Source: a virus
Strand: one strand, 5' to 3'
IMG/VR virus record: IMGVR_UViG_3300045988_126062
DNA length: 64,000 nt
Of this stretch, positions 1 through 49,460 are shown in pieces (positions within the stretch are counted from its first letter, which is position 1; every line of letters starts with the position of its first letter). The translations under genes and the position numbers were made by a program. The notes under the pieces are model-generated. The model was not told the DNA's origin. It saw only the letters and a list, made by a program, of their open reading frames with translations, and made no database searches.

Positions 1-205
1 CCAACAAAATTCAATAGATCAGCGTTTTAAAACAGCATTTTGTAGTTTCTACCAACAAAATTCAATAGATAAGCGTTTTAAAACAGTGTTCTGTAGATCA
101 TTTCCACAAAATTCAATATGATAAGGGTTTAAAACAGCATTATATAGGTTCCTTCCAACAGATTAAGAGTTAAGGACTGCATTATGTGAGTATTTTTTTC
201 AATCG
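1..205. repeat. About 3.5 tandem direct repeats of ~52 bp (units at ~1-51, 52-104, 105-156, degenerate 157-200), each containing the perfect palindrome GTTTTAAAAC; iteron/operator-like array that probably continues upstream of the window
   Basis: Read directly: the core CAAAATTCAATAGATNAGCGTTTTAAAACAG recurs three times with a decaying fourth copy. Confidence 0.8.
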
Positions 206-688: not shown

Positions 689-1864
689 TTATACGGAAAT
701 CCGTACCGGGTTCCACCAAAACCCTCTACCTTTTGGTAACATCGTTACATCAAAGGATTCTTTTTCTGATTTTCTAATGATGTTAAAAGCACCATTGATA
801 TCAGCATTGATGATCTTACCAAACGAGGTTTTAAACAATCCTCGTTTGATTCTTCTTCCTTTGTAAGATTCATGTTTGCAAATCCGTTCATTATCTAAAA
901 AGCTACATTTTGAAGTATAAGATTCTTCAACGATCTTAACATTGATTCCTTCTAATGTAGCTTTATAAGATATCATTGAGATAAACATATTAAAAGGAAT
1001 AGATACAAAGTTCTGATTATTACGTTTTCCGATATTGATCTCTTGTTTCCAGCATTTGTTATGACCGATTATGATCGTATTAATACCATTGGAAACTACA
1101 TGATTAACCAATATCCTACTTGCCTTATGAAGATAATCTTTGATCTTGTTATTCCTTTTGTTGGTTAATGACCTGATTTGTTTTGAAATTTGTTTGTTAT
1201 CTTTTAATTTAGATTTTAAGAATGCTAATCTTTTATTATAATATTGGTTGATAGACTTCAGTGGTCTACCATTGATGATAAAACAAGAGCCATTGTTTGA
1301 AACACAAGAAGCTAAATTATCTAATCCTATGTCGATACCAAGATAGTTTCCATTGTCAGACATAAGATTCTTTTCCTTCTTGTTGTAAACTATTTCAAGA
1401 ACAATATACCCATTCTTAGGAATGAATCTAAGTTGCTGAATATTTTGTTTATTGGTTCTTGTTGTAAAAGAAAACTGTTTTGGTAACTTAACAACACCTT
1501 GTTTTATCCATTTTTGAGAAAAAGATGCAGTCGTAAAAACAGCAGGAAACAAACCACCTTTGTTAAGATACTTAGGCATTCTTACTTCCTCGGAATACTC
1601 ACCTCTGTTCCTTTTATTTAGAAGATTGAAGAAAGATTTGAAGTTTCTATCAACCATCATCAACACTTGTTGAGCAACTGGTGCTGGTAAAGCACGATAG
1701 TCAACATCATTTTCTGCTCTTAGTTTCTTTTCAAGAGAATAGTAGTTAAGATATTTGTATTTTACAGTATTATCATTCTTGTATTGGAAATAGTGTTGTC
1801 TAACAACATACAATCCTTTGTTGTATAAGTTTTTTACACTTATGCAATAGGTCATAAAGTTCAT
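689..1864 (-). CDS. tnpB: TnpB (IS200/IS605-family OrfB RNA-guided nuclease), 391 aa, apparently intact RuvC triad
   Basis: RuvC-I LGIDIGLDNLA, RuvC-II ESYTSKCS, RuvC-III NADINGAFNI; partial zinc finger (SKCS...CKH, second Cys pair missing); typical TnpB length. Confidence 0.85.
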   Translation of the reverse strand: MNFMTYCISVKNLYNKGLYVVRQHYFQYKNDNTVKYKYLNYYSLEKKLRAENDVDYRALPAPVAQQVLMMVDRNFKSFFNLLNKRNRGEYSEEVRMPKYLNKGGLFPAVFTTASFSQKWIKQGVVKLPKQFSFTTRTNKQNIQQLRFIPKNGYIVLEIVYNKKEKNLMSDNGNYLGIDIGLDNLASCVSNNGSCFIINGRPLKSINQYYNKRLAFLKSKLKDNKQISKQIRSLTNKRNNKIKDYLHKASRILVNHVVSNGINTIIIGHNKCWKQEINIGKRNNQNFVSIPFNMFISMISYKATLEGINVKIVEESYTSKCSFLDNERICKHESYKGRRIKRGLFKTSFGKIINADINGAFNIIRKSEKESFDVTMLPKGRGFWWNPVRISV

Positions 1865-12656: not shown

Positions 12657-13463
12657 ATGATAACATCAGTAAAAATAAAAGACAATACAAAAACTCCATT
12701 TGAATATGTTTCGGATATAGAAGCATTTGAAAATGGCAGAGAATTTATTTTCAAGCCAGGAGTGAATGTGATTATAGGGAAAAACGGTAGTGGAAAATCG
12801 ACCTTGCTTAACATAATATCAATGTATGCGTTATGCGAGAAATCCATGTGCTCTGAAATGCCGACCGAGGCACTGGATTTTCCACCTATATTTGATGACG
12901 ATGATAAGGTTTTTGATGGGATTGACATATCATCCGATTATGCAGGGAAAGTATTCCGTTTATTGCCGTCAACGGAGACAAATCGAGATAGTGTATCAAA
13001 AAACATCAGCAATTTCGATTTGTATGTGAATAGCATTCAAAAATCTTATGGAGAAAAAGTGGTGTTATCATTGGAATCACTTTTCAATTTAATGTTCGGT
13101 CAAAAGGATTATACATTTCCAATACAAGATCTTGTAGAATACAAGAAAAAATCAAATGCGTTTTGGATTAAAAGAATTGATAACCTGTTGAAGTATTATA
13201 AAAGAAACCGCATAACATTAACAGAAAGCAGTTTTGAATACACGGTTCTCATGGATGAGCCAGACAGGAATCTTGATATTGACAACATAATGCAGATTTA
13301 CAATGTATTGTCATTTCATAAACCACAAACACAAATTATAGCCATAATACACAATCCGGCATTGATTTACAAATTAAGCAAATTAGATTGTGTTAATTTC
13401 ATAGAGATGACAGAAGGGTATCTAAAGAATGTTGTTAATTTTATAAGCGAAACAAATGAATGA
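12657..13463 (+). CDS. ABC-type ATPase domain protein (SMC/RecF/OLD-like fold), 268 aa
   Basis: Walker A GKNGSGKST, signature-like SYGEKVVLSL, Walker B VLMDEPDRNLD, H-loop IIAIIHNP. Confidence 0.65.
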   Translation: MITSVKIKDNTKTPFEYVSDIEAFENGREFIFKPGVNVIIGKNGSGKSTLLNIISMYALCEKSMCSEMPTEALDFPPIFDDDDKVFDGIDISSDYAGKVFRLLPSTETNRDSVSKNISNFDLYVNSIQKSYGEKVVLSLESLFNLMFGQKDYTFPIQDLVEYKKKSNAFWIKRIDNLLKYYKRNRITLTESSFEYTVLMDEPDRNLDIDNIMQIYNVLSFHKPQTQIIAIIHNPALIYKLSKLDCVNFIEMTEGYLKNVVNFISETNE

Positions 13464-18062: not shown

Positions 18063-18224
18063 TCCAAAAAACAAACAAAATGGAAGAAAAAGAGATAAAA
18101 GAAGCTATGATTGAAGCCCTGACGCACTTAGAGGGGTGTAAGTATTTCGTGGCCACGATAGTAAATAATCGAGAATAATACATAACTCATACAAATCATA
18201 ACCAATTTGTATTGTATTATGCAT

Positions 18225-18463
18225 AATAGCCAAAAGCTATTCCGATTATTAGCCTAAGTGTTGAAACAAACACTACGTTATTTAAGAATAGATAGTTACC
18301 TACGGATATTTACCCAAGTCTGTAGCTCTAAGGTAGGTGATTAAACAGTTCTGGTATTCAGGAACAGTGTTGCTTACGAAAAACCTTAAATAACATTGGC
18401 GATGGGTACTAACAGAGTTTTACTCTGACTTATGTTGAATAAACATTAAAAACGTTTGTAGAT
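18225..18463 (+). ncRNA. IscB omega-RNA, copy A: variable guide-like segment (~18225-18246) plus conserved scaffold starting TATTAGCCTAAG at 18247 and running to the iscB start
   Basis: Directly upstream of an IscB gene; same scaffold found at 30020 and on the minus strand at 49345, with compensatory base changes in two stems. Confidence 0.65.
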
Positions 18464-19690
18464 ATGGTGTACGTACAAGACATAAATGGTAAACCTCTGA
18501 TGCCAACAACGAGGCATGGTAAGGTTAGGAGACTGCTTAAAGATAAAAAGGCAGTCGTTGTGAACCTATGTCCGTTTACCATCCGATTAACGTACGTAAC
18601 ATCTGATTACAAACAGGAAATTGTGTTAGGCGTTGATGCTGGAACTAAGCATGTTGGTTTATCAGCAACGACGAAAAGCAAAGAACTTTACAGCAGTGAA
18701 GTAATTCTTAGAAATGATATCGTAGATCTTTTGTCTACCAGAAGAGAGCTACGAAAAACAAGACGGAATAGATTGAGACATAGAAAACATCGTTTTAACA
18801 ATAGAATAAAAAGTAGGCGTCCCGGATGGACAGCACCTTCGGTGAAATACAAAGTAGACGCCCATATTCGTGTTATTGACAATGTATGTTCTATATTACC
18901 AATATCTCGTATTGTTATCGAAGTAGCTCAATTCGATACTCAAAAGATTAACAATCCTAATATATCAGGTAAAGAATATCAGGAGGGTGATCAACTTGGA
19001 TTTTGGAACGTTAGGGAATATGTTTTAGCAAGAGATGGACATAAATGCCAGCATTGCAAGGGAAAGTCAAAAGACCCAGTATTGAATGTTCATCATATTG
19101 AATCACGAAAGACAGGTGGAGATTCCCCATCTAATCTTATTACCTTATGTGAAACTTGTCATAAAGAATACCATAAAGGTAATATAGATTTAAAAATCAG
19201 AAGAGGCAAGTCGCTTCGCGACGCAGCCGTAATGGGAATAATGAAATGGAGATTGTATGAAGAACTAAAATCTAAATACGACAACATTTCTATGACTTTC
19301 GGTTATGTTACAAAATACAATAGGATTAAACATGGTATTGAAAAATCTCATGTTTTCGATGCATTTGTTATTTCTAAAAACTTTGATGCTATAAGGTTAG
19401 GATATTATTATAAAGTAAGATTAGTAAGAAGACATAATCGTCAGATCCATAAACAAAAGATTCCAAAAGGAGGAATCAAGAGGTTAAATCAATCTCCATT
19501 TGAAGTTTTTGGTTTCCGTTTGTTTGATAGGGTTATGTTTGAAAACAGTTATTACTTTATATTTGCAAGGCGTAAAACCGGTAGTTTTAATATTCGAGAT
19601 ATTGATGGTAAAAACCAAAGAGATATTACATACAAGAAATTGAAATTATCAAGGTGTAAACGCTTTATGGTACAAAAGGAAATGGATTGA
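18464..19690 (+). CDS. iscB: IscB RNA-guided nuclease (PLMP, RuvC-I, Arg-rich bridge helix, RuvC-II, HNH, RuvC-III), 408 aa
   Basis: PLMP motif; RuvC-I LGVDAGTKHVG; bridge helix RRELRKTRRNRLRHRKHRFNNR; RuvC-II IVIEVAQFD; HNH HKCQHCKG...NVHHIESRKTGGDSPSNLITLCETCHKEYH; RuvC-III HVFDAFVIS. Confidence 0.85.
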   Translation: MVYVQDINGKPLMPTTRHGKVRRLLKDKKAVVVNLCPFTIRLTYVTSDYKQEIVLGVDAGTKHVGLSATTKSKELYSSEVILRNDIVDLLSTRRELRKTRRNRLRHRKHRFNNRIKSRRPGWTAPSVKYKVDAHIRVIDNVCSILPISRIVIEVAQFDTQKINNPNISGKEYQEGDQLGFWNVREYVLARDGHKCQHCKGKSKDPVLNVHHIESRKTGGDSPSNLITLCETCHKEYHKGNIDLKIRRGKSLRDAAVMGIMKWRLYEELKSKYDNISMTFGYVTKYNRIKHGIEKSHVFDAFVISKNFDAIRLGYYYKVRLVRRHNRQIHKQKIPKGGIKRLNQSPFEVFGFRLFDRVMFENSYYFIFARRKTGSFNIRDIDGKNQRDITYKKLKLSRCKRFMVQKEMD

Positions 19691-29830: not shown

Positions 29831-29999
29831 AGCAAAAGCAGCATTTATAGATTTCCTGCCGGCAGGGACAGTGCTTTACTAATTATAATATTTTTAACAT
29901 GGATTTTGGACAAGATTTAGAACCAGAAGAACTGACCGGGCATTATGATCGGTGTTATAACCCCAAATAGTATTAACCCAATATAATTCTATTATAAAA

Positions 30000-30268
30000 G
30001 TTTAATACATCTCTTTCAGAGATCGGGTTATTAGCCTAAGCCTTGAAACAGAGGCTACGTTATTTGAGAATAAATAGTTACCAAGGAATGTTTATCCAAG
30101 TTTCTTGCTCTAAGGATGGTGATTAAACAGGAGTAGTGTATTTGACGAAACAGTGTTGCCATTATATAAAACCTCTTATAACATTGGCGATGGGTACTTA
30201 CAGGAGAAATCATGACTTATCCCTAACGGGATTTACATCTACCAAGGAGACCGGAAGGTCTCCGAGGG
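30000..30268 (+). ncRNA. Orphan omega-RNA-like scaffold, copy B (no adjacent IscB): distinct 5' guide-like sequence, scaffold from 30020, 3' end replaced by GGAGACC-ggaa-GGTCTCC hairpin (30246-30263)
   Basis: Aligns with copies A and C over ~170 nt; stems retained through compensatory changes (GTGTT/AACAC vs GCCT/AGGC; CTAC/GTAG vs CAAG/CTTG). Confidence 0.6.
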
Positions 30269-47904: not shown

Positions 47905-49143
47905 TTACTTTAATATAATCGGATGCCTCTTCCCTCTAATGAGTTTAAACTTTTTGCGTGAAACATCTTTTGAATTTTCTCCGTTGAAATCCCTGATATT
48001 GAAACTCCCTGATTTTCTCCTTCCATAAACAAAACATATTTTATTATTATACAACACTTTATCAAACAACCTAAAACCAAAAACCTCAAAAGGAGCTTGA
48101 TTGTTTTTCTTCTTTCCTCCTTTTAAAATTTTCATTTTATGTATTTGCCTATTATGCCTACGAATTAAACGTTTTAAATATTGACATCCGATTCGTTTCG
48201 CATTAATGTTCTTAGAAATGACAAACGCGTCGGATGTATGGGATTTTTCAATCCCGTATTTAATCCGATTATGTTTCGTAATGTAACCAAACGTCATAGA
48301 AACTCTGTCGTATCTGGATCTCAGTTCTTCATACAACTTCCATTTCATGATCCCCATTACGGCCGCGTCGCGGAGCGACGATCCCCGTTTGATCTTCAAA
48401 TCTATATTACCTTTATGGTATTCTTTGTGACAAGTTTCACATAAGGTAATAAGATTAGAAGGGGAATCACCTCCCGTTTTTCGGGATTCAAGATGATGGA
48501 CATTAAGGATCTTATCTTTTGACTTCCCTTTACAATACTGACATTTATGCCCATCCCTTGCTAAAACATACTCCCTTGTGTTCCAAAACTCAAGTTGATC
48601 ACCTTCCTGGTATTCTTTACCTAATATTTCAGGATTCTTAATCTTTTGAGTATCAAATTGAGCTACTTCAATAACAATACGAGATATTGGTAGTATAGAG
48701 CAAATATTTTCAATAACACGAATATGAGCGTCTACTTTGTATTTCACCGAAGGTGCTACCCATCCTGGACGCTTGCTTTTTATTCTATTATTGAAACGAG
48801 GTTTTCTATACCTCAACCTATTCCGTCTTGTTCTTCGTAGCTCCCTTCTGGTAGACAAAAGATCTACGATATCATTTCTAAGGATCACTTCACTACTGTA
48901 AAGTTCTTTGCTTTTCGTTGTAGCTGATAAACCAACATGTTTAGTACCAGCATCAACGCCTAACACGATTTCTTGTTTGTAATCAGATGTAACGTACATT
49001 AATTTGATGGTAAACGGACATAGGTTTACAACGATTGCCTTTTTGTCTTTAAGCAGTCTCCTTACCTTACCATGCCTCGTTGTAGGCATCATAGGTTTAC
49101 CATTTATATCCTGTACGTACACCATACTTACAAACGTTTTCAA
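47905..49143 (-). CDS. iscB: IscB RNA-guided nuclease, second copy (412 aa; about 90% identical to the copy at 18464; alternative start MVYVQ at 49122)
   Basis: Same PLMP, RuvC-I/II/III, bridge-helix and HNH motifs as copy 1; C-terminal ~25 aa diverge. Confidence 0.85.
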   Translation of the reverse strand: MKTFVSMVYVQDINGKPMMPTTRHGKVRRLLKDKKAIVVNLCPFTIKLMYVTSDYKQEIVLGVDAGTKHVGLSATTKSKELYSSEVILRNDIVDLLSTRRELRRTRRNRLRYRKPRFNNRIKSKRPGWVAPSVKYKVDAHIRVIENICSILPISRIVIEVAQFDTQKIKNPEILGKEYQEGDQLEFWNTREYVLARDGHKCQYCKGKSKDKILNVHHLESRKTGGDSPSNLITLCETCHKEYHKGNIDLKIKRGSSLRDAAVMGIMKWKLYEELRSRYDRVSMTFGYITKHNRIKYGIEKSHTSDAFVISKNINAKRIGCQYLKRLIRRHNRQIHKMKILKGGKKKNNQAPFEVFGFRLFDKVLYNNKICFVYGRRKSGSFNIRDFNGENSKDVSRKKFKLIRGKRHPIILK

Positions 49144-49368
49144 TGTTTATTCAACATAAGTCAGAGTAAAACTCTGTTAGTACCCATCGCCAATGTTATT
49201 TAAGGTTTTTCGTAAGCAACACTGTTTCGCAAATACACTACTCCTGTTTAATCACCCACCTTAGAGCTACAGACTTGGGCAAACATCCGTAGATAACTAT
49301 CTATTCTCAAATAACGTAGCCTTCGTTTCAAGGCTTAGGCTAATATCCGGACCATTTATGGTACATTA
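49144..49368 (-). ncRNA. IscB omega-RNA copy C (minus strand): scaffold 49345 down to 49144, guide-like segment ~49346-49368
   Basis: Reverse complement aligns with copies A and B; directly upstream of the iscB start. Confidence 0.65.
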
Positions 49369-49460
49369 AAACCTTATAATGAAATTATATTGTTTTAATG
49401 TTATTTCGGATATGAAAACAAATTCGCCACCGTATCTTTTATTAGCCAATTCTTCTACAG

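Follow-up and report, generated by a model that had tools for sequence, protein, structure and literature searches.

The window (the whole stretch of 64,000 nucleotides analysed here) begins with a directional tandem array of 51-bp units that recurs in all 129 distinct loci examined, always in the same orientation and directly upstream of a homologue of the same first gene (gene 1), 60-110 bp away from it. The array as such is a real and robust observation. Judged by the pattern of sequence conservation, two short asymmetric cores are under selection, and the element is best described as an array of putative binding sites for a repressor or initiator. The reading we favour, put forward as a possibility, is that it constitutes the reiterated promoter/operator region of the leftmost rightward early operon.

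Within its first 6 kb the window has a sole match in INPHARED, crAssE-Sib ('csAssE-Sib', OR575929, 151,256 bp; 93% identity), which is the only epsilon genome in that collection. crAssE-Sib has been placed in the epsilon crAss-like group, whose members have no DNA polymerase and possess a virion RNA polymerase homologue, a repressor and antirepressors (PMC11054128). By sequence match, the window is thus that of an epsilon crAss-like gut phage. These phages are abundant, uncultured gut viruses. As the only strong, strictly conserved, single-copy cis-element by the predicted genome start, the array is the obvious first target for mapping of transcription starts and of the origin and for pull-down of a binding protein.

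The crAssE-Sib record has the array at about 150.5 kb, again in front of gene 1, with repeats diverged to about 77%; it represents the strongest noncoding repeat of the genome and is confined to a single locus. Gene 1 heads a co-directional block of ~40 kb in that phage, in which small hypothetical genes are followed by genes for a primase, a DnaB-like helicase and other replication proteins; the counterpart in the window is the rightward block of ~38 kb. The block upstream of the array carries nucleotide-metabolism and replication genes in the same orientation.

Anatomy of the array

Tandem Repeats Finder (TRF) detects a single tandem array at positions 1-160 of the window (period 51, 3.1 copies, 80% matches), and its score of 204 compares with 70 for the runner-up tandem repeat in the 64 kb. 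The initial annotation had placed about 3.5 tandem repeats of ~52 bp at the window edge upstream of the first gene. The repeats and their location are confirmed, the array covering positions 1-205 and the first ORF starting at 235, but the period is 51 bp and the array consists of three units and a fourth element that is far more divergent than the others (Table 1). Within it, A/T tracts follow one another at distances of 20 to 31 bp. Of the four copies of the core TTTAAAACAG in the window, three belong to the array; 0.40 copies are expected, and 0/100 shuffles reach four. Nothing in the repeats passes the gathering score of any Rfam family. A CRISPR array was considered and rejected, as the units are contiguous and lack unique spacers (CRISPR repeats measure 28-37 bp).

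Table 1. Features at the left end of the window (positions within the 64,000-nucleotide stretch)
Feature	Position	Strand	Remarks
Repeat unit 1, 51 bp	1..51	+	Left edge is the window edge; probably cut by contig break
Unit 1, block A	2-14	+	
Unit 1, palindrome	24-33	+	
Unit 1, block B	26-35	+	TTTAAAACAG
Unit 1, block C	38-45	+	TTTTGTAG
Repeat unit 2	52..102	+	84% identity to unit 1
Unit 2, block A	53-65	+	
Unit 2, palindrome	75-84	+	
Unit 2, block B	77-86	+	
Repeat unit 3	103..153	+	73% identity to unit 1
Unit 3, block A variant	104-116	+	CCACAAAATTCAA
Unit 3, block B	128-137	+	
Unit 3, broken palindrome	within 103..153	+	GGTTTAAAAC, 9/10 positions
Conserved element, putatively promoter-proximal, type I	154..205	+	Degenerate block A (CCAACAGATT), GGACTGCATTATGTGAGTA, then T-tract 193-199
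Leader, array to start codon	206..234	+	AATCGGAATGTATAACAATTAAAACATAAACAAC; conserved in relatives
Gene 1, 86 aa	235..495	+	First gene of the rightward block; always directly downstream of the array

Each repeat had furthermore been credited with a perfect 10-bp palindrome. This sequence, GTTTTAAAAC, is in fact limited to units 1 and 2, the only two sites in the window (0.10 expected; two sites reached in 2/100 shuffles); unit 3 reads GGTTTAAAAC and the fourth element has none. The units of many relatives likewise read GCTTTAAAAC or GGTTTAAAAC, and in the logo the G that completes the palindrome is often C or missing. Folding energies of single units range from -0.1 to -4.5 kcal/mol with z-scores from -1.8 to +1.4, that is no stable hairpins are formed. 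The palindrome was consequently rejected as functional core, being conserved neither across units nor across lineages, and on the available alignments it is incidental.

What is conserved instead are asymmetric positions. Aligned on block B, 67 distinct 58-bp segments yield a logo with CCAACAAAATT(C/A)A for block A, (C/G)nTTTAAAACAG(C/T)A for block B and a short TnTAG for block C, so that the conserved positions form two directional cores, block A (CAACAAAATTCAA) and block B with its extension (TTTAAAACAG..TnTAG). Blocks A and B are nearly invariant over units and lineages and the spacers vary. The motif search elsewhere in the genome that had been proposed as a check points to this locus only: PWM scans of the window and the crAssE-Sib genome (~151 kb) with the full unit, block A or block B/C found no second copy.

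Occurrence and variation among relatives

The 129 distinct loci were collected from 80 IMG/VR loci found via gene 1, five from diverged homologues and ~80 found via the unit pattern. Absence of the repeats from close relatives, which would have spoken against the initial annotation, was thus encountered in none of them. The number of 51-bp units per locus ranges from one to eight (1-8 B blocks) and that of A blocks from 2 to 11, and all 57 arrays with an intact left boundary keep at least two A blocks and at least one B block, as befits an element that is tunable in dosage but required. On the 5' side of their 51-bp units many relatives have extra repeats made up of block A alone, mostly with a period of 21-22 bp; these lack a counterpart in many others, and their junction sequences differ between lineages. 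The spacing of successive A blocks peaks at 21-22 bp (53 cases) and at 50-51 bp (83 cases), the window having 51-bp units only. A-only copies may be perfect (7 x 21 bp in the relative L003), and some arrays show irregular periods of 12-34 bp. In the relatives L205, L207 and L209, on the other hand, the 14-bp core is kept among 21-bp copies whose 7-bp spacers have diverged, which argues for selection on block A.

Wide variation in copy number and composition, recent perfect expansions as in L003, the irregular periods and the tendency of assemblies to break within the array bear the possibility of a largely neutral hypervariable minisatellite that slippage maintains in a tolerant noncoding gap, free of any sequence-specific function. 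We consider this quite unlikely in view of the near invariance of blocks A and B amid variable spacers, the minimal set of blocks that is always kept, the retention of the core in diverged 21-bp copies and the dominance of the two preferred periods. Rapid change of copy number by slippage or unequal recombination is nevertheless what we propose for the array.

An artefact of assembly at a contig end, the other objection foreseen initially, can be dismissed, because the array lies in the interior of dozens of independent contigs from several samples. Many contigs do end at varied positions inside the array or inside a second array ~3 kb upstream, and one contig of 142,955 bp has array units at both of its ends. 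The genome assembles as a circle that is repeatedly broken within the array, and the start of the window is very probably such a break. The copy number seen in the window is then a lower bound, and the earlier surmise that the functional core may lie further upstream is borne out in so far as relatives do have more array beyond the window edge. Since assemblies tend to break here and the VNTR differs between strains, 'ends' and repeat numbers given for metagenome-assembled genomes (MAGs) of this group should not be relied on unless long reads back them.

Rather than degenerating progressively toward the 3' side, as had been described, the array ends in a distinct proximal element. Its type I is almost unchanged in 82 of the 129 distinct loci; another 45 have one of two other types. 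The T-tract comprises seven T in the window and T7-T11 in relatives; either real phase-type variation or homopolymer sequencing error could explain the differences in length. Overlapping the tract, TATTTTTT at 191-198 is similar to the -7 box of Bacteroidetes (TAnnTTTG) and has its 3' end 36 nt before the start codon. Where the proximal element is of type II or III, conservation ahead of the leader ends with a B/C-like block, unaccompanied by any other promoter-like box; the same place is taken in type I by a C-like block and the -7-like TATTTTTT.

The N-terminal half of the gene 1 product is conserved and the Cys-rich C-terminal half varies; the protein belongs to no family in Pfam or PHROGs. 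A structural argument for an autoregulator was abandoned, as the AlphaFold model is of low confidence (pLDDT 54.6), and the search for a binding protein of the array yielded no candidate. Elements rich in GC (55-68% GC compared with ~36% for the genome) follow small genes, for example at 495-560 in the window (with GGTAGGGCGTAGG at 527-539) and at 5475-5684 in L003. A GC-rich region of 210 bp just left of the array in relatives contains the motif GGTAGGGCGTRGG twice; it displays essentially no covariation and thus provides no support for a structured RNA.

A proposed role in transcriptional control of the early operon

We propose that each 51-bp unit combines two directional elements. Block A (CAACAAAATTCAA) would be the recognition site for a sequence-specific DNA-binding protein, its AAAATT tract recurring in helical phase, and blocks B/C (TTTAAAACAG-N5-TnTAG) would act as a phage-specific core-promoter-like element directed toward gene 1. 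Reiteration of the units, together with the A-only 21-bp repeats of relatives, would yield tandem promoters, a phased platform for an activator or repressor, or both. The array would thereby set strength and timing of expression of the first ~14 kb of small early genes after DNA entry, and changes in copy number would tune the output. Protein binding and promoter activity are what we infer from the arrangement of the sequence elements, in particular from the recurrence in relatives of a 13-14-bp block A core mostly at 21-22 bp, i.e. about two helical turns, with variable spacers in between.

Several findings are consistent with transcriptional control. The asymmetric cores are directional, and the phage family encodes a virion RNA polymerase (PMC11054128). 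A terminator-like hairpin with a T-run, read from the sequence ~1 kb upstream of the array in relatives, implies that a new promoter is needed downstream of it. Boxes of the type TAnnTTTG lie 17-95 nt upstream of about a dozen later genes in the window, whereas before 13.9 kb the only one on the + strand of the block that falls into a gap between called ORFs is at 2002, just past a TnpB insertion. Given the upstream hairpin and the scarcity of such boxes, the array region is where transcription of roughly the first 14 kb would most obviously originate.

The position by the predicted genome start recalls the early promoter clusters at the leading ends of other phage genomes. Like promoters A1-A3 of T7, situated before gene 0.3, and the virion RNA polymerase (vRNAP) promoters P1-P3 of N4, the array comprises reiterated directional elements a few hundred bp from the genome end, directly upstream of a first, small and fast-evolving early gene, and the phage has a virion RNA polymerase. 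It differs from these clusters by lacking a host promoter consensus and by consisting of true tandem repeats in variable number, and its promoter role is putative. In fact, no unit contains a + strand match to the sigma-70 consensus or to the Bacteroidetes -33/-7 consensus (TTTG/TAnnTTTG). The promoters of N4 vRNAP moreover form stable hairpins with stems of 5-7 bp, whereas the folding of the array units is not significant. A promoter class usually recurs, so that the confinement of the motif to one locus in ~151 kb, with no copies upstream of other genes, counts against one, as does the 13-bp site at 21-bp period, which is more typical of iterons or centromeres.

The AAAATT tracts also resemble phased A-tracts and UP-element-like curved DNA, for in relatives they are exactly 21 bp apart over up to 210 bp, and the A/T tracts of the window likewise precede a promoter-like element. 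Since conservation extends well past the A-tract (CAACAAAATTCAA), sequence-specific recognition rather than curvature alone is implied.

A more specific version of the promoter reading would make the B/C module the promoter of the epsilon virion RNA polymerase, presented one to eight times at the leading end of the entering DNA, and block A the site of an auxiliary factor. We regard this as unlikely, although it would provide the first sequence-defined early promoter for a crAss-like vRNAP if true. Early transcripts have been mapped in a single crAss-like phage, phi14:2; those made by its vRNAP share no upstream motif, and no comparable array is present at the left end of that genome. Block A on the minus strand was also tried as a -7 box (TAATTTTG) and rejected: its first T is not conserved (C and A alternate), a -33 element is lacking and sites 21 bp apart cannot all be promoters.

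Possible roles in replication, at genome ends or in partition, and neighbouring elements

The main rival, that the array is the replication origin, appears doubtful to us, though worth serious attention. Block A would supply iterons bound by a phage initiator, the AT-rich B block and the T-tract would melt, and the DnaB-like helicase and primase would load there and recruit a host polymerase. A phage with helicase, primase, clamp and SSB but no DNA polymerase depends on an initiator to recognise its origin, and the array is a single locus and the strongest noncoding repeat. In relatives, up to 10 copies of the 14-bp core at 21-bp period with variable spacers are followed by an AT-rich segment, the classic iteron-plus-DUE anatomy. 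Asymmetric direct repeats with a 13-14-bp core at one locus with an AT-rich neighbour are indeed shared with lambda ori, P1 oriR, R6K gamma and pSC101, and so is the spacing of mostly about 21-22 bp between variable spacers. In the window lineage, on the other hand, the period of 51 bp is not iteron-like and each unit has a second conserved block. In addition, A blocks number from 2 to 11 among near-identical strains and A-only arrays are missing in many of them.

Analysis of GC skew, suggested earlier as a means to recognise an origin, did not single out the array. Skew in co-oriented genes is about 0.3 to its right versus 0.14-0.26 to its left, which is compatible with an origin and also with a gene-class effect. 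The extrema of cumulative skew in the crAssE-Sib record, a minimum at ~17.4 kb and a maximum at ~110 kb, coincide with switches of the gene strand and lie far from the array at ~150.5 kb; cumulative skew follows gene strand in this genome and is confounded as an origin test. Furthermore, there is no cluster of DnaA boxes near the array, the replication module is about 20 kb away, and Pfam and PHROGs reveal no Rep or initiator family in gene 1, in three small proteins upstream or in five proteins further into the block, three of which are from the replication module. Of the two functions originally considered typical of this architecture, origin iterons or repressor/initiator sites, the binding-site anatomy has thus been upheld, whereas skew, DnaA boxes and Rep genes are unfavourable for an origin. 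The only local DnaA-box-like cluster of crAssE-Sib, at ~72.3-72.8 kb (~22300-22800 in the relative L084), has four sites with at most one mismatch in 500 bp and adjoins genes for tRNA-Tyr and tRNA-Lys; it may be due to chance, as 72 such sites exist genome-wide compared with ~47 in shuffles.

Tandem repeats occur near the ends of T7 and large linear dsDNA viruses. The array could correspondingly be one of two variable arrays flanking the packaging start, with a role in packaging, concatemer processing or organisation of DNA ends or as a recombination-prone end marker, which we consider highly unlikely. The start of the crAssE-Sib record was chosen by PhageTerm (p = 1.5e-22; PMC11054128) and lies ~650 bp upstream of the array in window orientation. 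The genome has only two strong noncoding tandem arrays, that of 51 bp and one of 31 bp located about 2.1 kb beyond the predicted start on the opposite side; both vary in copy number, and two 19-bp direct repeats are situated directly at the predicted start. The predicted terminus is, however, outside the 51-bp array and does not coincide with it as a pac or cos site should, the published analysis of crAssE-Sib does not say whether the terminus is of the pac, cos or DTR type (PMC11054128), and the second array is absent altogether from two loci, the 51-bp array from none. That the asymmetric cores are strictly conserved and the array keeps a constant place with respect to gene 1 points to a function connected with this gene.

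The 19-bp direct repeats (ATTGGTCTAAAACGAAACT; 24-45 and 97-117 of the crAssE-Sib locus L001) are 73 bp apart and are candidate terminase recognition boxes. The second array (2864-3260 in L003, ~3 kb upstream of gene 1) consists of 27-33-bp units containing TTTATGTGATGAG, in 0-9 copies among relatives, and is followed by four palindromes of the type TGATWATCA and a TAnnTTTG box; it looks like an operator/promoter and is a frequent contig break point. A motif seemingly common to both arrays, TTATGTGA, was discarded, as it is not generally enriched.

Tandem units of ~50 bp, some with a short inverted repeat, also call to mind sopC of plasmid F, and a centromere-like partition site in the style of sopC or parC could serve an extrachromosomal carrier or prophage state. 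The array shares with F sopC (12 x 43 bp), R1 parC and the omega heptads of pSM19035 the tandem arrangement, the tolerance of copy variation and the location upstream of a possibly regulated operon. A temperate or persistent lifestyle has been proposed as possible, on account of the repressor and antirepressors and with no known integration (PMC11054128). A centromere is nonetheless extremely improbable: no protein of the ParA, ParB, ParM or ParR families was found and none is annotated in crAssE-Sib, the only P-loop protein nearby, encoded at 12657-13460, matches AAA domains of the SMC/ABC type and not ParA, and conservation does not extend to the inverted repeat within the units. When bacterial genomes were scanned with the unit pattern, which is unspecific, the matches listed were chance singletons only and included no plasmid or prophage form.

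A motif resembling a tRNA T-arm, GGTTCGATTCTGG, lies at 2135-2147 of the window and a close variant, CGGTTCGATTCTGG, at ~4515-4530 of L003, both in noncoding stretches of a few hundred bp. Neither ARAGORN nor Rfam reports a match, and folding of the copy in the window gives a z-score no better than -0.26. As a Ro60/TROVE protein is encoded by the phage family, a Y-RNA-like transcript is conceivable.

A mobile element is present in the window as well. The TnpB-type IS element at 641-1990 (ORF 689-1864, minus strand), with OrfB_IS605 and Cas12f1-like TNB domains, is bounded by 28-bp imperfect terminal inverted repeats (643-670 and 1963-1990) and splits a small ORF beginning at 603; the site is empty in crAssE-Sib. 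Three HEARO (IscB omega-RNA) matches score above the Rfam gathering threshold. That at 29957-30201 (+) apparently has no adjacent IscB ORF, the one at 18198-18413 (+) is followed by an ORF for an IscB-like protein of 408 aa with RRXRR and HNH domains (18464-19690), and the third, at 49176-49413 (-), abuts its inverted copy of 1283 nt (47944-49226), which is 83% complementary.
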